Source: an uncultured Pseudomonadota bacterium (lineage in GTDB: Bacteria; Oederibacteriota; Muellerivitia; Muellerivitales; Muellerivitaceae). Taken from it: a stretch of DNA of 64,000 nucleotides. Below the pieces are notes generated by a model that did no database searches, was not told the DNA's origin, and saw only the letters and a list, made by a program, of their open reading frames with translations. The DNA lies in assembly GCA_963770835.1 (NCBI GenBank), contig CAVYRH010000004.1, positions 166,515 through 230,514 on the forward strand, given 5' to 3'. Below are positions 11,938 through 28,874 of this stretch, piece by piece. Made by a program: the position numbers and the translations under genes. Position 1 is the first letter of the stretch, and each line of letters starts with the position of its first letter.

Positions 11938-11952
11938 ACCCGGAGCGAATCA

Positions 11953-13233
11953 TTGCCTGACTTTCAACCTCAATTAACCAAACGTTTCGGACTCAAGGAC
12001 AGCCATATGCTCAAGGTATTCCTTGAGACGGGTGGCTATGCGTCCTTGAAGAACCTTTTCGCCAAGAAGCCAGCCGAAGTCATCGAGGAAGTGAAGGCCT
12101 CCGGCCTCAAGGGCCGCGGTGGGGCCGGGTTCCCGTGTGGTATGAAATGGTCCTTTGTGCCCCAGAACACGGGCAAACCAATCTACCTGGCGGTCAATGC
12201 CGACGAGGGCGAACCGGGGACCTTCACCGACAATTACATGCTCTTAAACGACCCTCATCTTTTATTAGAAGGCATCCTATGCGCTTGTTATGCCATCAAC
12301 AGCCATACGGCTTATATTTATGTCCGGGGTGAGTTTTATGCGCATATCCAGCGGCTGAACGCTGCCATTGATGAAGCCCGGAAAGCTGGATATTTAGGGA
12401 AAAACATCCAGGGTTCGGGTTTCGATCTGGAAGTTTACGTGCACCGGGGTGCGGGGGCCTATATCTGCGGCGAGGAAACCGGGCTTTTAGAATCGCTTGA
12501 GGGAAAACCCGGAAAACCGCGCATTAAGCCGCCTTTTCCGGCGGTGGTCGGACTCTTCGGTTGCCCCACCATCGTCAACAACGTGAAAACCCTGGCTTCC
12601 GTCCCTTGGATCATCGCCAACGGTGCGCCGGCCTATGCCGTCATCGGTACCAAGGAATCCACCGGCACCCACGTCTTCGGACTCTCGGGCCACGTGAACC
12701 AGACCGGCTATTGGGAAATGCCCTTCGGCCTTCCCATGATGGAATTCATCAACAACTACGGCAAGGGAGTGAAGGGCGGGGCGCTCAAGGCTGTCATTCC
12801 CGGCGGTTCTTCCTGCCCTGTACTAACTGCCAAGGAATGCGAAGACTTGACCCTTACATATGAAAGTATGCGGGACCACAAAACCATGTTCGGAACAGGT
12901 TGCGCCATCGTGATGAACGAGCACACCGATATGGTGAAGGTTTTGAAAAATCTGACCCATTTTTATTCCCACGAGTCCTGCGGCCAGTGCACGCCCTGCC
13001 GGGAAGGGACAGCCTGGGAAGACCGGCTGATGAAGAAGTTTTTGAACGGGGAAGCCACGACCCAGGAATTGGGAATGATGCTGGAGATCGCCGACAACAT
13101 GGAGGGCAAGACCATCTGCGTTCTTTCGGCGGCCCTGGCCATGCCGGTCCGAAGTTTCATCCAGAAATTCCGGCCGGATTTTGAGAAATATTGCAAGCCG
13201 ACCTCAGTGGCCGTGCCGGAGGCGGTTTCCTAA
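11953..13233 (+). CDS. nuoF: NADH-quinone oxidoreductase subunit F (FMN/NADH-binding, 4Fe-4S)
   Basis: GLKGRGGAGFPCGMKW FMN site and ESCGQCTPCREG cluster motif. TTG start. Confidence 0.92.
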   Translation: MPDFQPQLTKRFGLKDSHMLKVFLETGGYASLKNLFAKKPAEVIEEVKASGLKGRGGAGFPCGMKWSFVPQNTGKPIYLAVNADEGEPGTFTDNYMLLNDPHLLLEGILCACYAINSHTAYIYVRGEFYAHIQRLNAAIDEARKAGYLGKNIQGSGFDLEVYVHRGAGAYICGEETGLLESLEGKPGKPRIKPPFPAVVGLFGCPTIVNNVKTLASVPWIIANGAPAYAVIGTKESTGTHVFGLSGHVNQTGYWEMPFGLPMMEFINNYGKGVKGGALKAVIPGGSSCPVLTAKECEDLTLTYESMRDHKTMFGTGCAIVMNEHTDMVKVLKNLTHFYSHESCGQCTPCREGTAWEDRLMKKFLNGEATTQELGMMLEIADNMEGKTICVLSAALAMPVRSFIQKFRPDFEKYCKPTSVAVPEAVS

Positions 13234-14858: not shown

Positions 14859-16168
14859 TGGACTCGAACCAAGTTTTCACCCTTATCAACATCGCGGTGA
14901 TGACGGTGGTGATGTGGCTTATTCCCCTCCAATTCATCCCGGTTTTCATCTGGCTGGAGCGCAAGGGAAGCGCTATCATCCAGGACCGCATCGGTCCCAA
15001 CCGCACGGGAATCCTGGGGTTCCGACTTTTCGGCATGGTCCAGAATTTCGCGGACGTCGTGAAACTTTTGATGAAAGAAAACATCGTACCCACCAAGGCC
15101 AACCGCTTTTATTTCATGCTGGCGCCCTTTTGGGCCATGACCATCAGCCTCCTGCCCCTTTTGGTGGTTCCCCTCGCCGCCCCCCTCAACTTGATGGGAC
15201 ATACCATCCGTTTCCAGGCCGCCGACCTTGGCGTGGGGCTTCTCTTCATCCTTTCCATCACCAGCATGGGAGTCTTCGCCATCATCCTGGCCGGGTGGTC
15301 CTCCAACAACAAATTTTCCCTTATGGGGGGGCTGCGTTCCTCGGGCCAAATGATTTCCTACGAGCTTTCCATGGGCCTGGCAATGGTGGGGCTCTTGATG
15401 GTCTACCAGGATGTCCGGATGAGCTCCATCGTGGAAGCTCAAGGAAGGCTTTTGACCGCATGGGGCCACACTCTGCCGCTGCCCAATTGGGGTATATTCC
15501 TCCAGCCTGTCGGGTTTCTCCTTTTTTTGGTGGCTTCTTTCGCTGAAACCAACCGAAATCCCTTCGATTTGGCGGAAGGGGAGTCGGAACTGGTGGCGGG
15601 CTTCCACGTGGAATACTCCAGCGTCAAGTTCTCACTCTTCTTCATGGCCGAGTATTCCAACATGGTGGTGGCGGCCTTCGTGATCTCGACCCTATTCCTG
15701 GGTGGCTACCAGGTGCCCTTCGCCTCCACTGATACCCTGTTGCAAAACCCGAAACTAACCCTGGCCCTTTTATGCGGATTAGTGATCCTACTCATGGGGC
15801 TTACCGGCCTATTCCTCTATAAGAGGGGGAACCAGCAAAAACACCTTTTCGCCAACGGGGTGAAAAGGGCTGAGCCCTTTCTTTTCGCGGGGCTTTGCTT
15901 TGCGGTTGCGACGGCGGCCCTGGCATTCCTGGCTGTGGGTTTGACAACGGAACTTGCCCCATGGATCTACGGGATCGCCACCACCCTGTTGCAATTGTTT
16001 TGCCTGGTCCTGAAGGTGCTGTTTTTCTGCTGGCTCTTCGTATGGGTACGCTGGACCCTGCCGCGGTTCCGTTACGACCAGCTGATGAAGATGGGATGGA
16101 AGCTCATGCTGCCGCTGGCCTTGTTGAACTTGCTGGTGACCGGCGTGATTATTTTGACACAAAAGTGA
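14855..16168 (+). CDS. nuoH: NADH-quinone oxidoreductase subunit H (with an insertion of about 90 aa)
   Basis: NuoH signature regions (IQDRIGPNR, AETNRNPFDLAEGESELVAGFHVEYS). ATGA overlap with nuoG. Confidence 0.88.
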   Translation: MMDSNQVFTLINIAVMTVVMWLIPLQFIPVFIWLERKGSAIIQDRIGPNRTGILGFRLFGMVQNFADVVKLLMKENIVPTKANRFYFMLAPFWAMTISLLPLLVVPLAAPLNLMGHTIRFQAADLGVGLLFILSITSMGVFAIILAGWSSNNKFSLMGGLRSSGQMISYELSMGLAMVGLLMVYQDVRMSSIVEAQGRLLTAWGHTLPLPNWGIFLQPVGFLLFLVASFAETNRNPFDLAEGESELVAGFHVEYSSVKFSLFFMAEYSNMVVAAFVISTLFLGGYQVPFASTDTLLQNPKLTLALLCGLVILLMGLTGLFLYKRGNQQKHLFANGVKRAEPFLFAGLCFAVATAALAFLAVGLTTELAPWIYGIATTLLQLFCLVLKVLFFCWLFVWVRWTLPRFRYDQLMKMGWKLMLPLALLNLLVTGVIILTQK

Positions 16169-16204
16169 TGAATAGCCGAGGGAACAGAGGAGTTTGAGGT
16201 TTTT

Positions 16205-16750
16205 ATGAGAATTGTGCAACGGCCCGAAATGAAGGGCTCTGAAAAAATATACGTGGTGGAAGTGGTCAAGGGCCTTTGGCTGACGATCGGCCACGTCGTT
16301 ACCAACCTATTCCATCCGGAAAACTTGCCCACGGTCTTCTTCCCCGAGGAAAAGAAGGCGCTTCCACCCGCCACCCGCGGGAGACACCGCCTCATGAAAC
16401 GGGAAGATGATTCGCCGCGTTGCACGGCCTGCATGCTGTGCGCCACGGCCTGCCCGGCCGAGTGCATCCACATCCTAGCCGCCGAGTCGCCCGATCCGAA
16501 CATCGAGAAGCTCCCTGAGAAATTTGATATCGATATGCTGCGCTGTGTGTATTGCGGCTTTTGCGTGGACGCCTGTCCCCTGGACGCCATCCGGATGGAC
16601 ATTCCGGAGGTTACTGTCGCCGGTTACACGCGCGACAGCCTGGTGTACCACAAGAAATTCTTGATGGATCACGACAACAAAGACGTAGTGCCGGATTATA
16701 ATCCGCCCCGGCCAGTCCTTTGGACACATGGGCCCCATGCAAAGCCTTAA
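16205..16750 (+). CDS. nuoI: NADH-quinone oxidoreductase subunit I (2x[4Fe-4S])
   Basis: CTACMLCATACP and CVYCGFCVDACP motifs. Confidence 0.9.
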   Translation: MRIVQRPEMKGSEKIYVVEVVKGLWLTIGHVVTNLFHPENLPTVFFPEEKKALPPATRGRHRLMKREDDSPRCTACMLCATACPAECIHILAAESPDPNIEKLPEKFDIDMLRCVYCGFCVDACPLDAIRMDIPEVTVAGYTRDSLVYHKKFLMDHDNKDVVPDYNPPRPVLWTHGPHAKP

Positions 16751-16848
16751 GAAGCAGTCAACAGTTGGCGGTCGGCAGCCGGAAATAAGTAAAAGACGCT
16801 GGTTTTTAGTTGTCGACCGTCGACTGTCAGCTTGGAGAAAGGGAAGTC

Positions 16849-17352
16849 ATGATTGAAGCGGTTTTGTTCTATATTCTGGCCGCGGTTCTCTTGGGCATGG
16901 GTTTGCTGGTGATCACCAGGACTAATCCCATCGCCTCGGCCTTGGGGCTGGTGGCTGCCTTCGCGGCTTTGGCGGCCCTTTACGCCCTTTTGTCCGCTTC
17001 GCTGGTGGCCATCATCCAAATCCTGGTTTACGCGGGCGGCATCATGGTGCTCATGATCTTCGTGATCATGCTTTTGAACCTTCATCCGGACGACCTCAAG
17101 CCCATGCGGGCCAAGGGAATCGTCGTGGCATTGGCCCTGGTTATGGTTTTGGGGTTGGTCTTAGGCCCGGTTTTCCTGGTGGTTTTCCCCGCCGGGACTT
17201 GGACCCTAGCGCCCGTGGCGGCGGGCTTTGGGGACATTTTCTCAGTCGGTGAAAAAATATTCTCGGATTATTTGTTTCCCTTTGAGATGCTCTCGCTGGT
17301 GCTTTTGACGGCCATCGTGGGAGCTTTGGTCCTCACGAAAAGGAAACTTTAA
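16849..17352 (+). CDS. nuoJ: NADH-quinone oxidoreductase subunit J
   Basis: 168-aa membrane subunit. ATG 16849 after GGAGAAAGGGA. Confidence 0.85.
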   Translation: MIEAVLFYILAAVLLGMGLLVITRTNPIASALGLVAAFAALAALYALLSASLVAIIQILVYAGGIMVLMIFVIMLLNLHPDDLKPMRAKGIVVALALVMVLGLVLGPVFLVVFPAGTWTLAPVAAGFGDIFSVGEKIFSDYLFPFEMLSLVLLTAIVGALVLTKRKL

Positions 17353-17670
17353 ATGGAGCTTTTATATCCCATCACGCCCACGCATTACCTGGTCCTGTCG
17401 GGCTTGTTATTCGGCATTGGAACGGCGGGGGTGCTGTCGCGCAGGAACCTGTTCGTCGTCTTGATGTCCCTGGAATTGATGCTGAACGGGGTGAACCTTT
17501 CCTTCATCACCTTTTCCAGGGTGAACGGCGATTTGACGGGCCATGTGATCGTCTTGTTCGTGGTGGCCATTGCGGCGGCGGAAGCCTGCGTGGGATTGGC
17601 CATCGTGATCGCCCTTTACCGCCTGAAGGAAACGGTGGATTTGGATTTATTTAAGAGCTTGAAAGGCTGA
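17353..17670 (+). CDS. nuoK: NADH-quinone oxidoreductase subunit K
   Basis: 105 aa with 3 TM helices and the conserved glutamates (LELMLNGVNL). Confidence 0.88.
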   Translation: MELLYPITPTHYLVLSGLLFGIGTAGVLSRRNLFVVLMSLELMLNGVNLSFITFSRVNGDLTGHVIVLFVVAIAAAEACVGLAIVIALYRLKETVDLDLFKSLKG

Positions 17671-17671
17671 A

Positions 17672-19651
17672 ATGGGAATCGAAGCGTTCCAATATAAGTC
17701 CCTGATCCAGTTCGACTGGATTTGGCTCATCCTTGCCGCTCCCCTCCTGGGGGCGGTTGTGAACGGTGCTTTGACCCTTTTCGCAGCGGGCCGCAAAACC
17801 AACATCGCCCATGGGTTTTACGCCACGGTTGGCTGTGGGGGGGCCTTCCTTTCTTTTATCGCCTCCTGGCTAACCTTCCTTCATTTTAAGGAGCTACCCG
17901 CCGGCAGCGTTTTGACCCAGGAATTGTTCGATTGGATCGAGGCGGGGGCCTTCCACACGAAGATGAGTTTCGAACTGGACGCCCTCTCCATAAGTATGGT
18001 GGTGTTCATTACCTTCGTTTCAAGCCTTATCCATCTTTATTCTGTGGGGTACATGAAGGACGATCCAGGTTTCGGCCGGTATTTCACTTACCTGAATATT
18101 TTCCTCTTTTCCATGCTGGTCTTGGTGATGGCCCAAAATCTTCTCGTGCTCTTTTTGGGATGGGAAGGCGTGGGGTTTTGTTCCTATCTTTTGATCGGTT
18201 TTTGGTTCGACGATGCCGCGAAGGCCAACGCGGGCAAGAAAGCCATCATCGTCAACCGCATCGGGGACGCGGGCTTCCTGGCCGGCCTACTGATCCTCTT
18301 CGCGCTGGCGGGGACCTTCAATTTCAACGAACTGCAAATGGGGAAGCACGCTTTCACTGAGCTTTCCGCCACGGTGATCTGCCTTTGTTTCTTCTTCGGC
18401 GCGGCGGGCAAGTCGGCCCAGATCCCCCTTTACGTCTGGCTGCCGGACGCCATGGCGGGCCCCACGCCGGTATCGGCCCTCATCCACGCCGCCACCATGG
18501 TGACGGCGGGTATTTACCTGGTGGCGCGCCTCAATTTCCTCTTCGTCCTGGCGCCCTGGGCCTCCATGGTGGTGGCGGTTATCGGCGTTTTAACTGCCCT
18601 CTTCGCGGCCACCCTAGCCCTGGCCCAAAACGACATCAAAAAGGTTTTGGCTTACTCCACCATTTCCCAACTGGGGTTCATGTTCTTGGGGGCGGGGGTC
18701 AGCGCCTACGGCGCCGGACTCTTTCATCTCATCACCCACGGGTTTTTCAAGGCTTGCCTCTTCCTGGCGGCAGGCTCGGTCATTCACGTTTTGAAGGGAG
18801 AGCAGGACATCCGCAAGATGGGCGGGCTGCTGAAACATATCCCGTTGACGAGCATCTCCTTCTTCCTTGGTTGGGCCGCCATTACGGGCGTCCTGCCTTT
18901 TTGCGGGGGATTTTTCAGCAAGGACGAAATCCTCTGGCGGGCCCTGGCAACCCCCAACCCGGTCATTCCCTTTTTGCCGGAAGCGCTTTATTTCACCGCC
19001 CTTTTCACCGCCTTCCTGACGGCTTTTTACATGACCCGCCTTTTCGTGACGGTTTTCTTCGGGGAATACCGGGGGGACCGCGAAATCTTCGAACACCTGC
19101 ACGATTCACCGAAGGTCATGACGGTGCCGATGCTGCTTTTGGGAGTGGGTTCCATCGTCGTCGGCTGGATCGGAGTGCCCGAGGCCATCGGCGGGGGAAA
19201 TTCCCTGGGTAAGTTCGTGGAACCGATTTTCCATCTTTCCACCCTGGAGGCCAACAACATCTCCCCGAAATTGGAGCCGCTTTTGATGCTGCTTTCCTTC
19301 TTAGTGGCGGGCTTGGGGGTCCTGGCCGCCTGGTATGTCTATGGGTGGAAGCACAACATCAGCCCGGTTCTTTTAAAGTTGATTCCTGGCGGTAAGAAGG
19401 CCGTCGAGAAAAAATATTATGTGGATGAGATTTACGAAGTGTTGGTGGTGCGTGCGGTTAAGGGGTTTGCCCATTGGGTCTCCGACAGGCTGGTGGAACA
19501 AATCCTCATCAACCGGGTACTGGATGTAATCACCCAAGGGGTTTACGCGGTCGCGAAGTTATTGAGGAAAACCCAAGTGGGCCTGGTGCGGGTTTACTTG
19601 GCCTACGTCGTGGCGGGCGCCGCACTGTTGATTTATCTCTTACTTCATTAA
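17672..19651 (+). CDS. nuoL: NADH-quinone oxidoreductase subunit L
   Basis: 659-aa antiporter-like subunit (WLPDAMAGPTPVSALIHAATMVTAG). Confidence 0.9.
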   Translation: MGIEAFQYKSLIQFDWIWLILAAPLLGAVVNGALTLFAAGRKTNIAHGFYATVGCGGAFLSFIASWLTFLHFKELPAGSVLTQELFDWIEAGAFHTKMSFELDALSISMVVFITFVSSLIHLYSVGYMKDDPGFGRYFTYLNIFLFSMLVLVMAQNLLVLFLGWEGVGFCSYLLIGFWFDDAAKANAGKKAIIVNRIGDAGFLAGLLILFALAGTFNFNELQMGKHAFTELSATVICLCFFFGAAGKSAQIPLYVWLPDAMAGPTPVSALIHAATMVTAGIYLVARLNFLFVLAPWASMVVAVIGVLTALFAATLALAQNDIKKVLAYSTISQLGFMFLGAGVSAYGAGLFHLITHGFFKACLFLAAGSVIHVLKGEQDIRKMGGLLKHIPLTSISFFLGWAAITGVLPFCGGFFSKDEILWRALATPNPVIPFLPEALYFTALFTAFLTAFYMTRLFVTVFFGEYRGDREIFEHLHDSPKVMTVPMLLLGVGSIVVGWIGVPEAIGGGNSLGKFVEPIFHLSTLEANNISPKLEPLLMLLSFLVAGLGVLAAWYVYGWKHNISPVLLKLIPGGKKAVEKKYYVDEIYEVLVVRAVKGFAHWVSDRLVEQILINRVLDVITQGVYAVAKLLRKTQVGLVRVYLAYVVAGAALLIYLLLH

Positions 19652-19670
19652 GGCAGCTCTTAGAAGTTTT

Positions 19671-19695
19671 AGCTGTTAGCCAAAAACTAACAGCT
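19671..19695 (+). other. Perfect 9-bp stem hairpin (AGCTGTTAG-N7-CTAACAGCT) in the nuoL-nuoM intergenic spacer
   Basis: Read directly. No trailing T-tract, so this is not a canonical terminator. Confidence 0.6.
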
Positions 19696-19729
19696 AAAAG
19701 CCAAAAGCTGATTTAAAAAGAGGTTTATT

Positions 19730-21313
19730 TTGATCCTATCCATTCTCATAGGTCTTCCCGTGCTGGGAGCGGTGTTGGCGGCGCTTTTTCCCCAAGAAAA
19801 GGCCACCAAGACCATTTCCCTCCTGGCTTCCCTCACCACCTTCGTATTTTCCCTCCTGCTTTACGTTCGCTTCGACGCGGCGGATGGGGGGTTTCAGTTC
19901 CAGGAACTCATCCCGCTGGTCCCCCGGCTTTCCATCAATTACAGCCTGGGCCTGGACGGTTTATCCCTTTGGCTCATTCTCCTCGCCACTTTCCTCACGC
20001 CACTTGTGGTTCTGGGAAGCTTTGGAATGATTAGGAAAAATGTCAGGGGATATTACGCCTGCCTGCTTTTGCTGGAGGCTTCCGTCATCGGAACCCTGGA
20101 GGCCACGGACCTGTTCCTTTTTTATATTTTCTGGGAGCTCATGTTGATTCCAGCTTTCTTCCTGATCGGCGTCTGGGGCGGGCCCAACCGCGTGAAGGGA
20201 ACGGTGAAATTCATCCTTTTCACCATGGCGGGGTCGCTTCTGATGCTGGTGGCGCTCATTTATGTGACCCACGAAGTGAAAAGCTTTGATTACGCCAAGG
20301 TCTTCGAGCACGCCTTCCCGGAAGACGTTCAATTCTGGTGCTTCCTGGCCTTTGCGATGGCTTTTCTCATTAAAATCCCCCTCTTTCCTTTCCACGGCTG
20401 GCTCCCGGACGCCTACACGGAGGCGCCTGCGGGCGGTACAGTGATGCTTTCCGCAGTGCTGGTCAAGCTGGGGGCCTACGGCCTCTTGCGTTTCTGTATC
20501 CCGCTTTTTCCCGACGCAGCCAAGGCCTTCGCCCCCTGGATCATGGTGCTGGCCGCGGCCGGAGTGGTGCATGGGGCCTTCATGGCCATCCTTCAAACCG
20601 ATTTCAAACGGTTGATGGCTTATTCCTCCCTCTCCCATATGGGGTTGATCACGCTGGGGATTTTCACTTTTTCGCTCACGGGTCTCGAGGGCGGCATGAT
20701 CCAGATGGTCGGCCACGGGGTTTACATGGGGGGGCTTTTCCTTTTAATTGGGATGCTTTATCAACGCCGGGAATCGCACGAGATGGATGCCTACGGCGGG
20801 GTCGCGAAGGGGGCGCCGCTCCTGGCGGCGGCATTCCTTTGGATGATTCTTTCATCAGCCGGCCTGCCCGGCTTTGCGGGTTTCGTGGGTGAAATCCTGA
20901 TTTTGACTTCCGCCTACAAGGTTTGGGCCCTGCCGGCCCTCGTCGCCATCACGGGTTTTGTCCTCTCGGCTTGGTACCTCTTCAATTTGTACGGGAAAGT
21001 GTTTTTTGGACCGGATAAAGCCCACCGCCAAGACGCCAAGGCGCCAAGTAAGACAGATCCTGAAAACAAAGAACAAACCCAGAAGTTTAAGGATCTGTCA
21101 CTGTCAGAAGGTTTGGCGCTATTGCCGCTGGTTTTGGCCGCCCTTTGGATCGGTCTGAACGCCAATTTTTTCCTGGCACCCATAGAAAAGACCCTTCAAA
21201 TGAAAGTTATTGAAAAGTTGAAACCACCGCCACCCATGATGGATTTCGCCGCCGAGCAGCGACGCCTCCAAGAAGAAATGGACAACGGCAACAAGAAGCA
21301 TCCGAAGCGTTAA
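19730..21313 (+). CDS. nuoM: NADH-quinone oxidoreductase subunit M
   Basis: Antiporter-like subunit (FPFHGWLPDAYTEAP). TTG start after an AAAGAGG ribosome-binding site. Confidence 0.9.
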   Translation: MILSILIGLPVLGAVLAALFPQEKATKTISLLASLTTFVFSLLLYVRFDAADGGFQFQELIPLVPRLSINYSLGLDGLSLWLILLATFLTPLVVLGSFGMIRKNVRGYYACLLLLEASVIGTLEATDLFLFYIFWELMLIPAFFLIGVWGGPNRVKGTVKFILFTMAGSLLMLVALIYVTHEVKSFDYAKVFEHAFPEDVQFWCFLAFAMAFLIKIPLFPFHGWLPDAYTEAPAGGTVMLSAVLVKLGAYGLLRFCIPLFPDAAKAFAPWIMVLAAAGVVHGAFMAILQTDFKRLMAYSSLSHMGLITLGIFTFSLTGLEGGMIQMVGHGVYMGGLFLLIGMLYQRRESHEMDAYGGVAKGAPLLAAAFLWMILSSAGLPGFAGFVGEILILTSAYKVWALPALVAITGFVLSAWYLFNLYGKVFFGPDKAHRQDAKAPSKTDPENKEQTQKFKDLSLSEGLALLPLVLAALWIGLNANFFLAPIEKTLQMKVIEKLKPPPPMMDFAAEQRRLQEEMDNGNKKHPKR

Positions 21314-21337
21314 ACACGGAGCCGGTAAAGTTATTCC

Positions 21338-22795
21338 GTGACTCAAGATTTTCCGAGGTTTAAGTTGGGCCCATTACCGAACGAATTAACCCCGCTCCTG
21401 CCCCTGTGGATCGTCGTGGCGGGGGCGCTTGCGATCCTTCTGCTGGAAGCCCTCTTGCACGAGGAAGGGCGCAAGGCGGCGCCCGTTTTGGCCGGAACCG
21501 CCCTGGTGCTTTCACTGGGGAGTGTCTTTCACCTGCTTTCCTTGCGGGGAATGCCCGGGCCTCTTTTTCACGGCGCGGTGGTCGTGGATTTGTATTCCCT
21601 AACCCTCCAGGGAATTTGCCTGTTGTCGGCCCTTTTGACCTGCGTTTTTTCCGCTTCTTATTTGAAGCGGGAAAAGGCCGTGACCGGCGAATATTACGCC
21701 CTTCTTCTTTTGGCCGTGGCGGGCATGTTCACCTTGGTCCTCGCCGCCGATTTCCTGACCTTTTTCGTGGGTCTGGAACTCATGTCCCTGGCCGCTTACG
21801 TTTTGGCGGGATACCTGCGGGTCCAGGAACGCTCGACCGAGGCGGCCTTGAAATATTTCATGCTAGGAGTTTTCGCCTCCGGATTTCTTCTTTACGGTGT
21901 CGCCCTAATTTACGGGGCCTCTGGGACCATTCATTTTTCGGACTTGAGGCATTTCTTGGAACAAGGGCATACTTCCTCCCTTTTCGTGGATTTAGGTGTG
22001 GGGTTTCTTTTGGTGGGTTTGGGATTCAAGGTCGCCTTGGTCCCTTTTCACGGTTGGGCGCCGGATGTTTACGACGGGGCCCCAGCCCCCGTATCGGCTT
22101 TTCTTTCGACGGGTGTTAAAACCGCAGCCTTCGGCGCGTTTGCCCGCCTTTTCGCGGAGGCATTCGGCTTGCCGGGAACCTGGGTTCCGGTTTTCGCGGT
22201 CCTGGCCATTCTCACCATGACCCTGGGCAACCTGGGGGCCCTGGCCCAGGAAAGCGTCAAGCGTATGCTCGCCTATTCCAGCGTCGCCCATGCCGGGTAC
22301 CTTATGGTGGGGCTTGCCACCGTATCCCTCGCCCCGGCGGATGACCTGGAACGGGCGGTGGCTTTTTACCTTTTGGCTTACACCCTCATGACCGCGGGGG
22401 CTTTTGGCTGGATCGCCTGGGCATCCGGAAAGGGCGAGGCGGGAACGGGGCTCGAAGATTACCGGGGTTTGGGCCTGAAATGCCCTTGGATGGGGTTGAT
22501 GATGGCGCTTTTCATGTTTTCCCTGGCCGGCATGACACCCACCGCCGGCTTCTTCGGAAAATACTACCTTTTCAAATTGGCGGTGGACCACGGTTTGATC
22601 GGATTGGCCCTCATCGCGGTTTTGAACAGCTTTCTCTCGGCTTATTACTACCTGCGAGTGGTCGTGTTCCTCTACATGAAACCCTCAAAGGAAGGGGTTG
22701 GCTCCGTCCCATTCGTCCCCTGGGATCTTCGCCTCGCCTTTTTTCTTTGCGGTTTGGGTGTGCTGGCCGCGGGGTTTTTCAAATTTCCTTTTTAA
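21338..22795 (+). CDS. nuoN: NADH-quinone oxidoreductase subunit N
   Basis: Antiporter-like subunit (VPFHGWAPDVYDGAPAPVSAF). GTG start. Confidence 0.88.
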   Translation: MTQDFPRFKLGPLPNELTPLLPLWIVVAGALAILLLEALLHEEGRKAAPVLAGTALVLSLGSVFHLLSLRGMPGPLFHGAVVVDLYSLTLQGICLLSALLTCVFSASYLKREKAVTGEYYALLLLAVAGMFTLVLAADFLTFFVGLELMSLAAYVLAGYLRVQERSTEAALKYFMLGVFASGFLLYGVALIYGASGTIHFSDLRHFLEQGHTSSLFVDLGVGFLLVGLGFKVALVPFHGWAPDVYDGAPAPVSAFLSTGVKTAAFGAFARLFAEAFGLPGTWVPVFAVLAILTMTLGNLGALAQESVKRMLAYSSVAHAGYLMVGLATVSLAPADDLERAVAFYLLAYTLMTAGAFGWIAWASGKGEAGTGLEDYRGLGLKCPWMGLMMALFMFSLAGMTPTAGFFGKYYLFKLAVDHGLIGLALIAVLNSFLSAYYYLRVVVFLYMKPSKEGVGSVPFVPWDLRLAFFLCGLGVLAAGFFKFPF

Positions 22796-22817
22796 ACGGG
22801 AAAGGGATGGCCACTCC

Positions 22818-23120
22818 ATGAAAGTTATCGCCGATTTGTGCGTCGTGCCCTTAGGGGTCGGCGTCTCGGTATCGGAATACGTAGCGGCTTGCGAGAAGGT
22901 TTTAAAAGAAGCGGGACTGAAAACCCAACTGCACGCTTACGGAACCAATATCGAAGGGGAGTGGGATCAAGTGTTCGCGGCCATCAAACGTTGCCATGAG
23001 GTTGTTCACCGAATGGGCGCGCCCCGCATCTCCACGGTCCTGAAATTCGGCACTCGCACTGACCGCAAACAGACCATGGATGAAAAAGTAAAAAGCGTCA
23101 AAAACCGCCTGAAAAAATAA
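22818..23120 (+). CDS. YkoF/MTH1187-family (DUF77) thiamine-binding-like protein
   Basis: 100-aa ORF MKVIADLCVVPLGVGVSVSEYVAACEKVL... typical of the MTH1187/YkoF fold. Immediately follows nuoN. Confidence 0.6.
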   Translation: MKVIADLCVVPLGVGVSVSEYVAACEKVLKEAGLKTQLHAYGTNIEGEWDQVFAAIKRCHEVVHRMGAPRISTVLKFGTRTDRKQTMDEKVKSVKNRLKK

Positions 23121-23226
23121 GTTCCGTCCCTTCCGTCTTAAAGATGACTACCACGTGGAAATTTTAGGTACAATTGGATTGGGTCGGGCCTCCCCTGCGG
23201 GAAGGCCTTTAGGAAGGGGTGGGTTG

Positions 23227-23688
23227 ATGCGTAAAATCTCGGGAAATGATCGCGGATTTACACTGATTGAACTCATGATCGTGGTGGCCATCATCGGTAT
23301 TTTGGCGGCTATCGCCATTCCCCGTTTCGCCCAGATGCTGGAAAAGGGCCGGGAAGGCGACACCAAAGGCAACTTGAACAGCATCCATTCGGCGGCTTCC
23401 ATTTATTACGGGGATCAAAGGGGCATATGGCCCACAACCCTGAGCACCCTTTCAATTTACGACTTCAGCCAATACCTGGACAATGTGGCCCCGGTCAAGG
23501 TCACGGGCAGTTTCGTGATGGGCGCCCTGAGCCCCAGCGGAGGGTTGATTACTATGACCACCCAGTCTTCTGTTCCTACGGGCAGCGGTACCGGTTGGCT
23601 TTACGACAGTACAAACGGCGAAATCTACGTCAATAGCACGGTAACTGATTCCAAAGGGCTTCCCTATTCTTATTACGGTTTCGAATAA
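23227..23688 (+). CDS. Type IV pilin / T2SS pseudopilin-like protein (N-methylation motif)
   Basis: Prepilin leader MRKISGNDRG|FTLIELMIVVAIIGILAAIAIP with the conserved Glu5. Confidence 0.85.
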   Translation: MRKISGNDRGFTLIELMIVVAIIGILAAIAIPRFAQMLEKGREGDTKGNLNSIHSAASIYYGDQRGIWPTTLSTLSIYDFSQYLDNVAPVKVTGSFVMGALSPSGGLITMTTQSSVPTGSGTGWLYDSTNGEIYVNSTVTDSKGLPYSYYGFE

Positions 23689-24033
23689 AAGTCCGGACAA
23701 CCTTTTGATTCTTCCGTCGTTTTCTCCACGGCACGTGAGGCCTCAGCTTCCAGGCAAATATGCGAATCCCAAAGATGTTTGAAAAATACCCGAGAGTGTA
23801 AGTTTTTCATTCCATTTTCTTAAAAACGATTTCCTCCCTCCCGAATTCTTTCGACAAAATTCAAGTTTCACGTTTCTGTTCCCCATGATTTTCGGAATAA
23901 AAATTGCATTTTAAAACCGTGATTCAACGCGCCTTGCGGAAAATCTCTGTGACATTCGTCATTATGAAAAATGCTGATTTATTCGAAACTCTTAACCACT
24001 TGAGCGATTATCCCCGTAGCCAGGAACGATTCA

Positions 24034-25566
24034 ATGTCTGGGAATCCAAATTTAACTTCGCCACCGGTTATTTCCATCCACAGGGAATATCCATTCCCCT
24101 TTGGAAAGGCAATATTGGCTGCGGCGTTCCTTATTGGACTCGTCGTGGTTTGGACTTATGGCATGGCCCATGGCCGCAATTCAACTCTCCGGCCCGCCTT
24201 CAGTATGAGGGATGGAACTGTTCTCATCCCCGAATCCGAGCGGCCCTTGGATTTCTGTGTCATCGGGGTTGATCCAAGCCGGAGCCTATTTTGTTTTTTG
24301 CCTTTCCTTCAGCAAGAGGCGCTGATGCCTCCTTCCCGGTTCCAGGAAATCCACCGTCAATTGTACTGGCTTAATTTTGAGATATCCCACGGGCGGCTCC
24401 TGAACGCCCTTCCCCGCAGTACGCAAATCTACGTGGCCCTGCCGGACCCGAAAAGCGTGAAAGAAGCGGACGGAACCGAAGAAGGGCTTTTCCGGGGTTA
24501 CTTGAAGGCCCACTGTGGATGGACGGAAGCAGACATCCAGGGGCGCATCCATTTCTTTAAGACGCCCGTTCCCATCGTTTGGGCCCAGGATATCGGCAAA
24601 ATCCTCGGCCACGACGCCCAAGGCCGGTGGATCATTTCCCGCGGTTCTAATGACCAACGCGGTTATGGGGAATCCGTGGGTGCCCTTTGCCAGGCTTATC
24701 CTAACCTTTTCACTTTTCGCGACTTGCCTGCGGGAGTCAGCGCCGAAGGGGGGGACGAGGACCTGGTCCGTACCCCCGACGGAAACCTGGCGATGTTGGT
24801 GGGGCGCCACCGGGCGCGCAATTACCTAGAATGGGCCGGCGGGCGGTCCTTGAACGCCCAGGTTTTAAGCCAGGACGATCTCCTCAAGGCGGAAGACCTT
24901 TTTTCAGGAGCCTTCGAAGGCGTGCCGGCAATTTTTATTCCCAGCCGGGCCCTGGAAAACCCAGCGCTTGGCAACAATGAGCTGTTCCACCTGGATATGT
25001 CGGTCGTTGTTCTCTCCGTGGGAGGAAAGACCCATGCCTTCGTGCCCTCTTATATCGATCATCCGATCGACCGTGTGACCGGCCAGCCCTTGGACCCCGC
25101 CTTCGTGAAAAGCCTGCAGGACGAATACGACCTGATGGCCTCCGAGCTGACTTCCTTAGGTTATCCAGTCGACCGTCTGGCAATTACGGACCATCCCGTT
25201 CGCAGTCCGGCCAATTTGGTGAGATATTACGATCCCACAACCGGGCACTGCACGGTTCTTTTGGCGAGATATCCCTACAATTTTTCCGGTTCCGGGGGGT
25301 TCGTGCCCCAGGAAAGGGTTATGGACAGCTTTAAGGATTTAAGGGAAAAGGGTGAGGCTTGGGAGAAAGCCTCCAACGAATACAACTTCCTGCAATTGCG
25401 CCGGTCCATTGAAGTTGCCTGGCAAACTATGGATGGGGCGGGCTCCCAAAGCGATCCCTTTTTCGAAAAGAACCGAGAACTTTTCCAAAAAGCGGGGGTC
25501 GATGTGGTGGCCGTACCGGATTTCGCCTGGGGCTCGGGCGGGCTTCATTGCCAAATACTGCATTAA
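24034..25566 (+). CDS. Membrane-anchored guanidino-group-modifying enzyme superfamily protein (agmatine deiminase / peptidyl-arginine deiminase-like)
   Basis: N-terminal TM helix. Motifs RGSNDQ, LFHLDMS (H-x-D) and C-terminal GSGGLHCQIL resemble the amidinotransferase-fold catalytic Cys motif GGGIHCITQQ. Confidence 0.5.
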   Translation: MSGNPNLTSPPVISIHREYPFPFGKAILAAAFLIGLVVVWTYGMAHGRNSTLRPAFSMRDGTVLIPESERPLDFCVIGVDPSRSLFCFLPFLQQEALMPPSRFQEIHRQLYWLNFEISHGRLLNALPRSTQIYVALPDPKSVKEADGTEEGLFRGYLKAHCGWTEADIQGRIHFFKTPVPIVWAQDIGKILGHDAQGRWIISRGSNDQRGYGESVGALCQAYPNLFTFRDLPAGVSAEGGDEDLVRTPDGNLAMLVGRHRARNYLEWAGGRSLNAQVLSQDDLLKAEDLFSGAFEGVPAIFIPSRALENPALGNNELFHLDMSVVVLSVGGKTHAFVPSYIDHPIDRVTGQPLDPAFVKSLQDEYDLMASELTSLGYPVDRLAITDHPVRSPANLVRYYDPTTGHCTVLLARYPYNFSGSGGFVPQERVMDSFKDLREKGEAWEKASNEYNFLQLRRSIEVAWQTMDGAGSQSDPFFEKNRELFQKAGVDVVAVPDFAWGSGGLHCQILH

Positions 25567-25789
25567 CCGGCCGCTGAAAAAACAGTCGTACCGCAAAGTC
25601 GCCTTTATCCCCTTCCAACCTCCTTATAAAACTAGAAAATTGATTTCAGGAAGGTCTTTCATCCTCGGCGAAAGGCCTTTTTCTGGTCGGTGTTCAAAGT
25701 GACATTTGGAAGACCGGGGGATATAATTTGCCAACTATTTACGGATGAATGCCTTCCACCCTTTTTCTCGGTTTAACAAGGAGACTTTT

Positions 25790-26641
25790 ATGAAAAGTAT
25801 TTTGATCTTTGCACTTTTCCTGGCTTGGGCCCCACTTTTGTGGGCCGATCAACCCAATCCCCCACTGGTTCCCGTCCCAAGTGGCGAAGACACACTGCCT
25901 CCGCCTCTTGACCAGATGACCCCCGTAACCGTTCCCTCCCTCCCTGGAAATGAAAACACAAAGTCCGAGCCTCCGGAAAAAGTGGCTCCGCCGCCGATGG
26001 TTCCACCCAAATCGGCGGTTTCGGCATCGACTCCCGGGCCAACCATTCAAAGTCCAGTTCCCGAAAAGGTTTCCTCGAATACGGTGATTTCAGCAGGGGC
26101 CCTCACGGATTATTTTCCAGTCCATGAAGGCGCCAAGTGGAACTACGAATACTTGAAACCGGCTTCCGGCGAAACCGCCAAGGGAACCTATTCAGTTCAA
26201 TGCACCGAGGCCAAGCAAATGCCGAATGGAACGGTACGCGCCGTTTTTGAGACCACAGAGAACGGTCAAAAGGCGCAGGATCACTATTCGTTTTATGACA
26301 ATAAGATTGAGCACATGGGCGAAGATGGCCAAACTTCGACGGGTGACTTTGTGTTTAAGATCCCCTCCGCCGGTGGTAGCTCCGCTTGGTTGGTAACGGA
26401 AAAAGACGGGACGGTCCACAAATCCAAGGCCGCCTTCGGCCAAGCCCAGGTTTATCAGAAAACTTATCCTGATTGTGTGGTGGTTACGGAAAAAGTCGTT
26501 AAGGGCGGCAAAACGGCCAATACTGTCATTTATTATTACGCCAAGGGAACCGGCCTGGTGGCCGTGGAGGTTTATTCGCCGAAGATGAAGCTGGTCCAGG
26601 ACAAATCCGTCGCCCTCGTGAGCGGTTCCGGCTCTCATTGA
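25790..26641 (+). CDS. Secreted protein with a Pro-rich N-terminal linker (hypothetical)
   Basis: ATG 25790 after AAGGAG. Signal peptide ending LLWA. Low-complexity PPLVPVP..PP region, then a globular domain. Confidence 0.6.
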   Translation: MKSILIFALFLAWAPLLWADQPNPPLVPVPSGEDTLPPPLDQMTPVTVPSLPGNENTKSEPPEKVAPPPMVPPKSAVSASTPGPTIQSPVPEKVSSNTVISAGALTDYFPVHEGAKWNYEYLKPASGETAKGTYSVQCTEAKQMPNGTVRAVFETTENGQKAQDHYSFYDNKIEHMGEDGQTSTGDFVFKIPSAGGSSAWLVTEKDGTVHKSKAAFGQAQVYQKTYPDCVVVTEKVVKGGKTANTVIYYYAKGTGLVAVEVYSPKMKLVQDKSVALVSGSGSH

Positions 26642-27049
26642 AAAAATCGGGAGATCGACCCAGTTTTTGAATTCCCAAGGGTTTTGGTATTAAAATTGTG
26701 GTGAGTTTTGTTTTGGCCCTCAATGGGTTGTAATTCCCCCGAAAAACTGGAAACAAAATCCTTCCTCGGAGTTCCTTGCCGGTAAAATCCCTTAAAATAG
26801 TTGCAGTTACTCGGTTTCTACGGGTATCATGCTTCCCCTGGCCTCCATCCAACTCATGTTTTTCCCCCGATTGGTAAGTTTACCGAGGCTCTTTGAACCA
26901 AAGAAATAGGGTATGAAGCCCGTTACCCTGCGTGCGTTGCCGTCTTTTTATTCCGCCCTGGGGGTGGAATTCATGGGGGATCCAACGGCCCACGTTTTTT
27001 GTATCGGGAAATTTAAGGCAATCCCAAATTTTGAGGAGGAAGTACTTCA

Positions 27050-28874
27050 ATGGAAAATGAAATTATCGTCGGTATCGGTGGGGCAGCCGGAGACGGTGGC
27101 GCATCCACCGGGGACAACCTGGCTTTGGCCAGCGCCCGGCAAGGTCTTTTCGTGTACGTCTATACGAGCTATCAATCCCTGATCCGCGGCGGCCACTCCT
27201 GGATACGCCTCCGGATTTCCAGCAAGAATGTCACCAACGTCGGCGACCAAGTGGGCGCCATGATCGCCTTGAACCAGGATTCGATGGACCGCCACCTGCA
27301 GGAATTGACAACCGGCGGCATCTGCGTTTACAACGGCGATAAGGTCAAGCCCGGCAAGGCCCCCGAGGGCGTGCAGCTGTGTCCCTTGCCCGTGTTTGAG
27401 CTGGCGGGCAAGGATGCCCTTCCGATCATGCAGAACACTGTGGCCTTGGGCGCCCTCACCGGTCTCCTGGGATTGGAATTTTCGTCCCTTTCCTCAGTCT
27501 TCGAACACACCTTTAAGAAAAAACCCCAGGTCGTCAAGGCCAACATCGATGCCGCCAAGGCTGGCTACGATTTCGCGGTGAAGACCTACAAGAAAATCGC
27601 CAATCCCCTCGGCAAAACCCCGGCCAAGCTTGCTATGGTGCACGGCAACAACATGTTCGGCCTCGGCGCGGCCAACGCCGGCTGCAAGGTTTATTGCGCC
27701 TATCCGATGAGCCCGGCCACCGGCATCCTTCATTGGATGGCGGGACACGGCAAGGACTTGGGGATCTGCGTTCGCCAAGTGGAGGATGAAATCGGCGTCG
27801 CCAACATGACCATCGGCGCGGGCCAAATGGGCGTGCGCGCCATGTGCGCCACATCGGGCGGCGGATTCGCCCTCATGACCGAAGCCATCGGCATGGCCTC
27901 CATCATGGAAATTCCGGTCGTCATGATCAACGTCATGCGCGGCGGACCTTCCACGGGGCTTCCCACCAAGCAGGAACAAGGTGACCTGAACCAGGCCATC
28001 GGGGCCTCCCAGGGTGATTTCCAGCGCGTGATCATCGCCCCCACCTCCATCGCGGACTGCTACTCCACTATGGAAGAAGCCTTCAACTTACGCCGAGAAA
28101 TTCCAGATGCCGGTCCTCATCCTTTCCGACCTCCTGATGAGCGAGGGCCACATGACGCTGGAAACCTCCTTCCTGGACCGTGAGTTCAAGATCGACCGCG
28201 GCGAGATGATCTTCGAGGACGACGGCAAGCCGAAGAGCTACCTTCGTTATAAGGACACCCCTTCGGGCGTTTCGCCCCGGGCCATCCCCGGACTGTCAAA
28301 CCACCTTTACGTCTCCGCTACCGACGAGCACGACGAGGACGGGGTCACCATCTCCGACGTCTATACCGATCCCGTCACCCGCAAGAAGGTCGTGGACAAG
28401 CGCGAGCGCAAAATGCAGGGAGTCCTGGCCGCTTTGCCTAAGCCTAAATTGGAAGGATCGGCCGACGCCGACACCGTCATCGTGACTTACGGCTCCACCT
28501 ACGGGGCCGCCAGCGAGGCCGTCGAGCGCATGAACAAAGAGGGCGTGAAGTGCAGCCACCTTTCGGTCAAGTACCTGGTTCCTTTCCAGGAAAAGGAAGT
28601 TACCGCACTTTTGAAGGGTAAGAAAAACATCATCGTGGTAGAAATGAACAAATCGGGCCAATTCGCCCGCCATTTGCGCGCCGAAACGGGTATCACGTCC
28701 ACCGGCAACGTCCGCAAGTACGACGGCGAGCCGTTCGAACCCAAGCATGTCGTCGCGGGCATCAAGGAAGTCTTGAAGGGCAAGGCGGTCGTCGAGTCCG
28801 AGTCGTTGGAACCGGGCTGGCGCACGCCGCATCCTCCGGGACCGGGAGTCATGGCTACTTCGTCGACGCATTAA
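27050..28874 (+). CDS. korA: 2-oxoglutarate/2-oxoacid:ferredoxin oxidoreductase alpha subunit. Apparent +1 frameshift at about 28088-28091.
   Basis: The N-terminal part in frame (GGAAGDGGASTGDNLA...) ends at ..MEEAFNL. The conserved continuation AEKFQMPVLILSDLLMSEGH... is in the next frame. One extra base lies in aacttacgcc. Confidence 0.85.

Follow-up and report, generated by a model that had tools for sequence, protein, structure and literature searches.

The locus described here lies in a 64-kb window, by which we mean the whole stretch of DNA that was analysed, and comprises a prepilin gene followed on the same strand by a gene for a 510-residue protein, here called X, with a spacer between them that carries a promoter-like motif. 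Both genes are genuine. The features are as follows, with the catalytic positions of X set against those of PPAD, the enzyme of Porphyromonas gingivalis.

23227..23688, + strand: prepilin gene, 153 aa (ATG at 23227, stop codon at 23686-23688; PF07963, E=2e-10)
23689..24033, + strand: intergenic spacer between pilin gene and X, 345 bp, partly conserved by alignment with the spacers of the closest relatives, loci L009 and L010
23894..23908, + strand: sigma-54-type -24/-12 promoter-like motif GGAATAAAAATTGCA, 126 nt before the ATG of X
24034..25566, + strand: gene X, 510-aa open reading frame, C-terminus ...AWGSGGLHCQILH, i.e. ...GGLHCQILH
24100..24171, + strand: signal-anchor transmembrane helix, residues 23-46 (hydropathy, AlphaFold)
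24229..24243, + strand: PESER motif (P66, E67, S68, E69, R70), first conserved motif of the catalytic domain, at least 90% conserved
24589..24591, + strand: D186 (in WAQD), predicted guanidinium-binding Asp, equivalent to PPAD Asp130, invariant
24988..24996, + strand: H319-L-D321 (in ELFHLDM), predicted catalytic His and second guanidinium-binding Asp, both invariant
25189..25215, + strand: DHPVRSPAN motif (D386, H387, P388, R390, N394), family signature by conservation
25294..25449, + strand: helical hairpin insertion, approximately residues 421-472 (helices 425-445 and 449-471; AlphaFold)
25549..25551, + strand: C506 (in GGLHC), predicted nucleophile, equivalent to PPAD Cys351, invariant

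The prepilin begins with a class III signal peptide (MRKISGNDRG|FTLIELMIVVAIIGILAAIAIPRF, cleavage after G10), and its cleavage site RG|FTLIELMIVVAIIGILAAIAIP unites G-1, a hydrophobic residue at +1 and E+5 with the hydrophobic helix that follows, giving FTLIELM as the mature N-terminus. The canonical prepilin motif G|FTLIELM, recognized in a sequence-only reading of this DNA that preceded our analysis, is borne out by the match to PF07963 (N_methyl), alongside one to TIGR02532 (1.5e-10). The first 60 residues resemble Myxococcus PilA (1.8e-15) and GspG (9.9e-11), with which the protein has in common the class III signal peptide, the G-1/F+1/E+5 pattern and the hydrophobic alpha1-N helix (residues 13-48 in an AlphaFold model built from 29 close homologues; pLDDT 46). 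Unlike these, it lacks the Cys pair, being free of cysteines altogether, and its highly conserved C-terminal domain is that of a lineage-specific, very conserved family of 151-153 aa; all full-length equivalog HMMs score it below cutoff. Homologues number more than 5600, and the best 120 listed are 70-100% identical. The protein is an ordinary, highly conserved pilin of its lineage. Its motif occurs once in all six frames of the window, and a Pfam scan of the plausible window ORFs of at least 150 aa, with those nested in or overlapping larger genes left out, returned no T2SSE, T2SSF, prepilin-peptidase, PilM/N/O/P or secretin domain; the observation that the pilin stands apart from assembly genes thus holds for the window so scanned, and pilus assembly genes were not near the pilin in two other genomes examined either.

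X is a member of a small unannotated family from uncultured bacteria, whose proteins are exported, tethered to the membrane and related to agmatine and peptidyl-arginine deiminases. The homologues come exclusively from metagenome-assembled genomes (FCPU426, Goldbacteria, Acidobacteriota); 55 sequences, 32-77% identical to X, were aligned, and the DHPVRSPAN motif, used as search pattern, retrieved 46 genomic loci. At E<=1, no Pfam family matches X, PF04371 included (gathering threshold not reached), and no NCBIfam model does so, those for agmatine deiminase included. The recognition by PF04371 that the sequence-only reading had suggested as a check is therefore not seen, and the cytoplasmic agmatine deiminases, which that reading had considered as an alternative home for the protein, are a class to which no HMM assigns it. 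Against the PDB at E<=10, a profile of the X family retrieves neither PPAD nor agmatine deiminase chains, its single match being a weak one to the amidinotransferase HsvA (E=1.2), in which the GGxHC motif is aligned.

Because the direct scans are empty, the assignment of X rests on its predicted structure and on a transitive chain through an intermediate family. The X-family profile, run against 1.84 billion representatives, found a second tier of proteins of 380-630 aa, two of which (P0201, 34.1 bits; P0221, 37.2 bits) exceed the gathering score of PF04371 (cutoff 25). By hhalign, the X-family alignment (A1) matches P0221 over nearly the whole length (98.6% probability, E=9e-16) and the second-tier alignment (A2) at 100% probability (E=5.7e-45). 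The A2 profile of 42 intermediates finds, in turn, agmatine deiminase-type chains of the PDB (6b10, 3.5e-7; 2cmu, 6.5e-6; 3hvm, 8.9e-6), with the QD/RD, EGG, HxD, N and GSLHC motifs in register; PPAD is not among the chains it reaches, and phmmer with P0221 against the PDB gave nothing relevant. Homology of X to PAD_porph is demonstrable by profile methods via A1, A2 and P0221. The predicted structure of X is a five-fold pseudosymmetric alpha/beta propeller, as in the guanidino-group-modifying enzyme (GME) superfamily; PPAD is the best match in both fold searches with the model, agmatine deiminases come next, and PAD_porph members are the nearest structural neighbours, ahead of other GME families.

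The residue set that defines GMEs, taken here from the catalytic roles described for AIH (PMC6447857) and PPAD (PMC4893104), is present in X: a nucleophilic Cys close to the C-terminal end, a His and a pair of acidic residues that bind the guanidinium. D186, G239, H319, D321, H387, R390, H505 and C506 are invariant in the 55 sequences, G500 and G502 of the GGLHC region are likewise so, and E238, D241, N394 and E316 are conserved to at least 90%. With G500, G502, H505 and C506 invariant in the context of a GME fold, the GGLHC motif is no chance match, and the earlier recognition of a C-terminal catalytic-Cys motif of guanidino-group-modifying enzymes is confirmed; a failure of the catalytic residues to align, which would have spoken against it, did not occur, the set of Asp, His, Asp, Asn and Cys being in alignment. 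D186 aligns via A2 with the W-x-R-D motif of 6b10 and 3hvm. H319 and D321 correspond to PPAD His236 and Asp238 and align with the H-x-D of agmatine deiminases, as N394 corresponds to PPAD Asn297 and aligns with their conserved Asn. C506 aligns with GSLHC of 6b10 and 3hvm, again via A2, and with GGSFHC of HsvA. PESER matches the N-terminal PEW(E/S) of agmatine deiminases, in alignment with PEdER of the second tier and IPEWSE of 6b10. Within DHPVRSPAN, H387, P388 and R390 are invariant, and D386 and N394 at least 90% conserved. The hairpin insertion, which precedes both the final helix-strand unit and the catalytic Cys and carries W463 (at least 90% conserved), is family-specific, its region being gapped against P0221 and the second tier in hhalign.

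X and all its relatives stop 2-4 residues past the catalytic Cys. Since X itself ends four residues past C506, it has no T9SS tail, and the analogy to PPAD as a T9SS cargo proposed by the sequence-only reading fails: no room is left for a sorting or Ig-like domain. We also rejected a T9SS link through the surroundings of X, for the Por_Secre_tail matches elsewhere in the window are sub-threshold (21 bits against 27) and at least ~16 kb away.

The N-terminal transmembrane anchor of the 510-aa protein is real and conserved, as judged from hydropathy, AlphaFold and orthologues. X has one N-terminal hydrophobic helix (Kyte-Doolittle maximum of 2.23 at residues 21-39; modelled helix 23-46), and 50 of the 55 family members show a hydrophobic segment ahead of the PExER motif, which is signal-peptide-like in 22, lipobox-like in 7 and a later anchor in 21. 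The other five are without such a segment and have PExER, where located, near the first residue, as would be expected if their genes had been called too short. For X, the positive-inside rule gives no guidance (2 K/R before the helix, 3 after), so its topology is drawn from the orthologues. Because the anchor is conserved, and in orthologues gives way to signals of the lipoprotein type or to cleavable ones, the catalytic domain almost certainly lies outside the cytoplasm, in keeping with the extracytoplasmic location suggested before. It is hardly credible that the anchor is an annotation artefact and X cytoplasmic, as some public gene calls that begin at Met98 (413 aa) might imply. Two cluster members of 413 aa, P0364 and P0366 from long ENA/NCBI contigs, equal residues 98-510 of X; however, the pilin is likewise shortened in the calls of the same assembly, to 137 aa with loss of G|FTLIE, which puts the gene caller at fault. 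With a start at Met98, the conserved PESER and the opening strands of a confidently modelled domain would be lost; such a start is also at odds with the hydrophobic segment prevalent among orthologues, and an AGGAA Shine-Dalgarno-like sequence is found 9-13 nt before the ATG at 24034.

The promoter-like element is given by the pattern GGAAYN5TTGCW, of which it is the single match in the window. Over 49 X loci (1.13 Mb) the pattern occurs 9 times, 8 of these just upstream of X and on the same strand; locus L010 has a GGTAT variant, and the orthologues of Acidobacteriota and Goldbacteria lack the motif in their upstream regions. Sigma-54 promoters have TGGCAC as their -24 consensus, from which the X motif (CGGAAT) deviates. 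From the motif match, we regard the element as a candidate promoter. The spacer shows no terminator-like site on the + strand, a simple sigma-70/terminator scan being empty, and an Rfam search of positions 22700-27100, guanidine riboswitch included, returned chance-level matches with no family at threshold.

The pilin had been put forward as a possible substrate of X, and this idea does not withstand comparison of the loci. A pilin is near X in 4 of ~50 loci; three of the four represent one syntenic block, which also has nuoLMN and a 2-oxoacid:ferredoxin oxidoreductase (POR), and another locus, L060, retains the nuo-ThiBP-pilin arrangement without X. The pilin family is far commoner than the X family, and in the window X is set apart by the 345-bp gap and a promoter-like motif of its own. 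Clustering of ~50 loci revealed no conserved partner gene of X beyond clade-level synteny. The adjacency therefore looks like inherited gene order, not a functional partnership and, suggestive as it is, provides no evidence of function. A link to thiamine, considered on account of thiamine-related genes near X (the window block, L007/L008 and L058), was dismissed: a cluster of this sort does not turn up repeatedly among the loci, and chance is the probable explanation. Nor do the surroundings of three second-tier homologues (an adjoining M23 peptidase; MurD and MurJ nearby; T2SSE/T2SSF nearby) have a consistent theme in common.

The explanation we favour, at a probability of roughly 0.7, is that X is a divergent PAD_porph-like deiminase, that is, a pentein-fold cysteine hydrolase, N-terminally anchored and exported. 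It would function as an extracytoplasmic, cysteine-dependent guanidino-group hydrolase, with helix 23-46 as uncleaved signal anchor and the five-bladed pentein domain (approximately residues 56-510) held at the inner membrane on its periplasmic side. By analogy to agmatine deiminase and PPAD, D186 and D321 would hold the substrate guanidinium; C506 may then attack the guanidino carbon, giving a thiouronium intermediate and ammonia, and H319 could serve as general acid/base in hydrolysis to the ureido product, while N394 would complete the polar shell. The two-helix hairpin (~421-472), at the position of the AIH gate-keeping loop, is a probable lid setting the substrate specificity. That X is a hydrolase and not a transferase is inferred, as are what the insertion does, what X acts on and how it serves the cell. 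In this lineage, a sigma-54-type promoter of its own would drive X separately from the pilin gene, and expression of X would thus need an enhancer-binding activator. Conditional processing of an extracellular or periplasmic guanidino compound (agmatine, arginine or peptide arginine), with ammonia released, appears the most likely role, and such processing could serve nitrogen scavenging or detoxification; neither an ammonium transporter nor a downstream catabolic gene was found linked to X.

Several more specific readings of X were weighed. An exported agmatine deiminase, functional counterpart of P. aeruginosa Agu2A' in removing or sensing extracellular agmatine, is possible, yet we consider it rather doubtful. 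Agmatine deiminases adjoin PPAD among the structural neighbours, the sequence bridge ends in agmatine deiminase-type PDB chains, and Agu2A' provides precedent for the export. Plant AIH has its channel Trp at D-3 (Trp91, Asp94; PMC6447857), where X has W183, and the near-invariant acidic E316, at -3 from the catalytic His, might hold the ammonium group of agmatine, the part played by Asp220 in MtAIH. However, the positions of MtAIH Asp89 and Asp220 are themselves non-acidic in X (I181, N315), the gate-keeping loop has given way to a helical hairpin of ~50 residues, and the agmatine deiminase models of NCBIfam and Pfam are without a match. The gene surroundings also argue against it: the four Pfam-annotated X loci contain no N-carbamoylputrescine amidohydrolase, putrescine carbamoyltransferase or agmatine/putrescine transporter, and no gene family recurs beside X across the ~50 clustered loci.

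A PPAD-like protein-arginine deiminase, citrullinating envelope or surface proteins, possibly the neighbouring pilin, at the outer face of the inner membrane, is unlikely in our estimation. PPAD does top both structural searches, and the catalytic domain of X is exported and tethered where prepilins are processed. Three genomes keep pilin and X adjacent, with X proteins that share 51-73% identity with that of the window; in L034 the arrangement differs, a pilin lying 1.2 kb downstream of X; and one second-tier homologue is 3.7 kb from T2SSE/T2SSF genes; bacterial PADs can, moreover, modify substrates encoded far away (bioRxiv 10.1101/2020.07.16.207027). The pattern of loci discussed above speaks against the pilin as the target. 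Were citrullination the function, a sigma-54-controlled tethered deiminase would neutralize arginines of the cell's own periplasmic or surface proteins (perhaps the pilin) or of incoming cationic peptides, with the family-specific helical lid selecting the protein substrate; that X should be the first known case of free-living bacteria citrullinating their own envelope is a shade less probable still. Even less can be said for an amidinotransferase, some other pentein that does not hydrolyse, or a binding protein lacking catalytic activity, all of which we judge improbable: HsvA is the sole PDB match of the X-family profile, though a weak one, and penteins include transferases as well as non-enzymes (eIF6, RESC5).

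To our knowledge, and from the literature found, PPAD and Agu2A' are the only characterized exported members of this enzyme branch. PPAD is a virulence factor implicated in rheumatoid arthritis. Agmatine deiminases are cytoplasmic enzymes of 330-390 residues, devoid of signals and usually linked to N-carbamoylputrescine-processing genes. Compared to the agmatine deiminase/AIH enzymes (AguA; PDB 3hvm, 2ewo, 1xkn, 6b10, 3h7k), X is anchored and exported at 510 aa, stands alone, has the gate-keeping loop exchanged for the helical hairpin and goes unrecognized by any agmatine deiminase HMM. PPAD (PF04371; PDB 5ak7, 4ytb, 6i0x) shares ~10% sequence identity with X and differs in architecture. It has an Ig-like domain (PMC4893104) and a T9SS C-terminal domain, whereas X has neither, its AlphaFold model showing no beta-sandwich past the catalytic domain and, as extras, the N-terminal helix and the hairpin only. 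PPAD is secreted and ends up on the outer membrane, X is tethered through the anchor at its N-terminus, and the ~50-residue hairpin insertion is a feature of X unlike PPAD. In PPAD, a pocket with Arg152 and Arg154 accommodates the carboxylate of a C-terminal arginine. Agu2A' of P. aeruginosa (PA14_48450) was identified experimentally as a Tat substrate (PMC6085387), and the substrate of this exported PAD_porph-type enzyme of the agu2ABCA' operon is a guanidino compound outside the cell (PMC6085387; PMC4211729). An RRxFL-type N-terminus like that of Agu2A' is also found in the second-tier relatives of X. However, Agu2A' is soluble and part of an agmatine catabolic operon, whereas X of the window is without a twin-arginine motif and without catabolic neighbours, and seemingly stays anchored. 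The X family is thus suggested as a third exported type, missed by sequence HMMs, membrane-anchored and with a distinct lid, bearing a sigma-54-type promoter motif in one clade and confined to the poorly known phyla FCPU426, Goldbacteria and Acidobacteriota. Its signature, DHPVRSPxN followed by GGLHC at the C-terminus, offers a basis for a possible Pfam/NCBIfam model, and X presents a testable case of periplasmic guanidino-group chemistry, be it for nitrogen scavenging, agmatine sensing or protein citrullination.

Based on the collective evidence, the deiminase-like protein X is understood as an exported, inner-membrane-tethered and Cys-dependent guanidino hydrolase (deiminase), conditionally expressed and directed at a guanidino substrate in the periplasm or outside the cell, a reading to which we assign a probability of about 0.7. 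Its fold, its predicted catalytic competence and its exported location are held with greater confidence than the statement as a whole. Under the proposed mechanism, the compound acted on could be agmatine, free arginine, arginine in a peptide or protein, or another one. The sequence-only reading had described a prepilin and a 510-aa anchored protein, and both are present, 345 bp apart on the same strand, in the following surroundings.

Genes and sites around X
8393-22795, complete nuo operon (Pfam scans)
22818-23120, MTH1187-type thiamine-binding protein, ThiBP (Pfam scans)
23227-23688, + strand, pilin, 153 aa
23894-23908, sigma-54-type motif GGAATAAAAATTGCA in the pilin-X spacer, 126 nt before the X ATG
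24034-25566, + strand, X, 510 aa
25745-26641, + strand, secreted protein, 298 aa
beyond the 298-aa protein gene, genes for 2-oxoacid:ferredoxin oxidoreductase (POR), a thioredoxin-reductase-like protein and succinate dehydrogenase (Pfam scans)
41982-46544 and 47119-49950, both - strand, two giant surface proteins farther from X, with sub-threshold T9SS-tail matches

Family assignment by the models of PF04371 (PAD_porph) or of agmatine deiminases, the check envisaged in the sequence-only reading, failed for X itself, which is unmatched in Pfam and NCBIfam at E<=1. Its 119 homologues in a set of 5.8 billion proteins all lack Pfam domains and informative names, almost every one being hypothetical or unnamed, and the family must be small because HMMER, run exhaustively against 1.84 billion representatives, gave only 132 matches at E<=1e-3 (52 at E<=1e-30). 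An alignment of 55 members (32-77% identity to X) has D186, G239, H319, D321, H387, R390, H505 and C506 invariant and E238, D241, E316, D386 and N394 conserved in at least 90%. The AlphaFold2 model built from it is confident (pLDDT 91.2, pTM 0.88), and Foldseek retrieves with it both the peptidylarginine deiminase of Porphyromonas gingivalis (PPAD; E=4.5e-10) and the Arabidopsis agmatine iminohydrolase (AIH; 2.5e-6), the predicted structure being essentially equal in its likeness to PPAD and to agmatine deiminases.

A bridge to PF04371 is provided by a second tier of 380-630-aa proteins in the tail of the exhaustive profile search, two of which pass the gathering score of 25 (P0201, 34.1 bits; P0221, 37.2 bits), with two more slightly under it. 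The X family aligns by hhalign nearly full length with P0221 (98.6% probability, E=9e-16) and with an alignment of 42 second-tier proteins (100%, E=5.7e-45), whose profile in turn finds the PDB chains 6b10, 2cmu and 3hvm at E=3.5e-7 to 8.9e-6. Motifs stay in register along the whole chain: PESER with PEW(S/E), WAQD186 with W-x-R-D, E238-G-G with EGG, H319-L-D321 with H-x-D, N394 with the conserved Asn and GGLHC506 with GSLHC. Crystallography and mutagenesis have assigned guanidinium binding and catalysis to D130, H236, D238, N297 and C351 of PPAD (PMC4893104), and to the equivalent residues of plant AIH (PMC6447857). Because its motifs correspond to these residues, X is, at the level of sequence, a very divergent PAD_porph relative with a complete predicted catalytic apparatus, while not a member by the HMM criterion of that family; the earlier placement in the guanidino-group-modifying superfamily is thus borne out by motifs and Foldseek alike.

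Regarding the side of the membrane, the single hydrophobic helix of X sits near its N-terminus with two K/R before it and three after, so that the positive-inside rule gives no answer for X alone. The family as a whole is more telling. A hydrophobic N-terminal segment precedes the first catalytic-domain motif in 50 of the 55 members, resembling a cleavable Sec signal peptide in 22 of these (e.g., MRKTLFVLLSILLFYSSPIRA/VD), bearing a lipobox-like Cys in 7 and forming a later signal anchor, as in X, in 21. The remaining five would fit N-terminally truncated gene calls, PExER lying within the first 28 residues in the four where it was located. That three interchangeable export devices serve one domain is strong sequence evidence for its working outside the cytoplasm, in agreement with the membrane-tethered, extracytoplasmic enzyme first proposed. 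Second-tier relatives have an RRxFL-type N-terminus, and export of such enzymes has precedent since Agu2A' of P. aeruginosa, a characterised enzyme of the same branch, has been identified by experiment as a Tat substrate (PMC6085387). The start of X at Met98 (413 aa) in some public gene calls was rejected as a caller artefact; the same assembly shortens the pilin too, with loss of the G/FTLIE motif. The distant relative P0201 (L055 4240-7281), PF04371-positive and with a Tat signal, is encoded 10 bp after a gene whose Peptidase_M23 product bears FG-GAP repeats, a single instance whose spacing points to an operon shared with a hydrolase of peptidoglycan or peptides.

Two further proposals concerned what X might work with. 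The analogy to PPAD as a T9SS cargo is excluded because X, ending in ...AWGSGGLHCQILH, is without the C-terminal domain. Both giant surface proteins, Thr/Pro-rich with DUF11 and FlgD_ig domains, score ~21 bits against the Por_Secre_tail cutoff of 27. Their genes cause a strong GC skew at 42-50 kb, and between them and the gene for a 740-aa PA14-domain membrane protein lies a stretch (50001-52000) of GC content 0.43, compared to ~0.55 elsewhere, mostly non-coding or with short ORFs only.

The other proposal, the pilin as substrate of X, drew on gene adjacency, and comparison of loci lends it no support. Scanning 185,579 species genomes recovered 46 X loci, all in metagenome-assembled genomes (candidate division FCPU426, Goldbacteria, 'Spirochaetia' bins and the Thermoanaerobaculia, Holophagales and Terriglobia of the Acidobacteriota), some genomes having two copies. 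Clustering of all adjoining ORFs at ~50 X loci revealed no gene family accompanying X beyond single clades, and a prepilin occurs within 6 kb at only four. In three of the four, the window has one syntenic block in common with L009 (73% X identity) and L010 (51% X identity), made up of nuoL/M/N, ThiBP, pilin, X, a secreted protein of 300 aa, POR alpha/beta and a reductase; the pilin-X adjacency is therefore inherited along with unrelated housekeeping genes. At the fourth, L034, the pilin lies 1.2 kb downstream of X, past opposite-strand genes, and in another genome (L060) nuo-ThiBP-pilin is kept (pilin 75% identical) with no X adjoining. The mature pilin has no invariant arginine in the homologue alignment. 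We consider it very unlikely that the pilin is the substrate.

The pilin (N-terminus MRKISGNDRG/FTLIELMIVVAIIGILAAIAIPRF, C-terminus ...YGFE) scores E=2e-10 with PF07963 N_methyl and 1.5e-10 with TIGR02532, resembles both Myxococcus PilA and GspG in its first 60 residues and attains the cutoff of no full-length equivalog model. It carries the only prepilin motif in six frames of the window, and the claim that assembly genes are missing nearby holds for the plausible window ORFs of at least 150 aa, where Pfam scans turned up neither pilus nor type II secretion assembly domains. The rarity of X contrasts with a very large, very conserved pilin family (>5600 matches, the best 120 listed being 70-100% identical). 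Its members measure 151-153 aa, with a C-terminal domain 70-84% identical in 28 aligned homologues from many assemblies; their genes, often in tandem copies, lie far from any assembly genes, as at L059 (two tandem copies, assembly genes absent within 10 kb), and public calls sometimes start at Met17, dropping the prepilin motif. Taken as a whole, this is an ordinary, lineage-typical pilin whose gene lies apart from its machinery, and no finding links it to X.

Other neighbours are noted for completeness. Thiamine-related genes neighbour X or its distant relatives in three arrangements that have nothing in common: ThiS-ThiG-ThiE directly upstream (L007/L008 6228-7961), ThiBP two genes upstream in the window, and TenA downstream (L058 4901-5584). 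Their proximity is probably coincidence because other loci show no recurrence. In the 298-aa protein, a signal peptide and a proline-rich linker are combined with a C-terminal domain that no Pfam family matches; its gene directly follows X in the window and L010, two extra genes intervening in L009, and is preceded by a strong sigma-70-like promoter match (GTGACA-17-TATAAT, 11/12; 25699-25727). The POR alpha gene (27050-28874) is split into two overlapping ORFs of 377 and 255 aa, its relatives in L001, L009 and L010 being single ORFs of 606-618 aa; the shift near 28090-28110 (...AFNL/RREIPDAGP..., expected ...AFNLAEKFQMPVLILSD...) looks like a single-base insertion, either assembly error or real frameshift.

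Conditional expression is suggested by GGAATAAAAATTGCA, which has the GG-N10-GC spacing and TTGCA -12 element of sigma-54 promoters. Taken alone, this match in the window is no more than chance would give. Across 49 X loci (1.13 Mb, both strands), GGAAY-N5-TTGCW occurs nine times, eight of them on the coding strand within the 550 nt before the X start (2.4% of the searched sequence), ending 13-123 nt ahead of the likely start codon at loci with X only 40-73% identical to that of the window. L010 has a GGTAT variant, and the orthologues of Acidobacteriota and Goldbacteria lack the motif upstream. A near-consensus site, TGGCATATCCATTGCA (37549-37564, - strand), ~48 nt upstream of an EAL-domain gene (36191-37501, - strand), suggests that the organism uses sigma-54. 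On this motif evidence X would, in this clade, be transcribed as a unit of its own that requires an enhancer-binding protein. An AT-rich conserved block (GAGTGTAAATTTTTCAT..., 23790-23830), ~70-110 nt upstream of the motif, recurs in the L009 and L010 spacers, in L010 as the perfect inverted repeat TGTAAAAA(T)TTTTTACA. An enhancer-binding protein or IHF might bind to this block. Sigma-54 regulons often cover nitrogen scavenging, as in the arginine succinyltransferase (AST) pathway of E. coli with the pentein AstB, or the periplasmic glutaminase/asparaginase of pseudomonads. An ammonia-releasing periplasmic deiminase would by analogy agree with such regulons, which is not proof.

X thus combines a known superfamily and known chemistry with a subfamily not annotated before, set apart by its anchor or signal, proposed helical lid, DHPVRSPxN signature and restricted, unusual taxonomic range and, in one clade, by a dedicated sigma-54-type promoter motif. 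Also family-specific is E316, three residues ahead of the catalytic His. Compared to agmatine deiminases, X is 120-180 residues longer, the extra length consisting of an N-terminal tail with helix and linker (~55 residues) and a helical hairpin (425-445 and 449-471) at which P0221 and the second tier show a gap in the alignment. The hairpin follows the Asn-bearing strand region and precedes the last helix-strand-Cys unit. Where X has this hairpin, plant AIH has a gate-keeping loop closing over the active site (PMC6447857), and by that analogy the hairpin may represent a specificity-determining lid.
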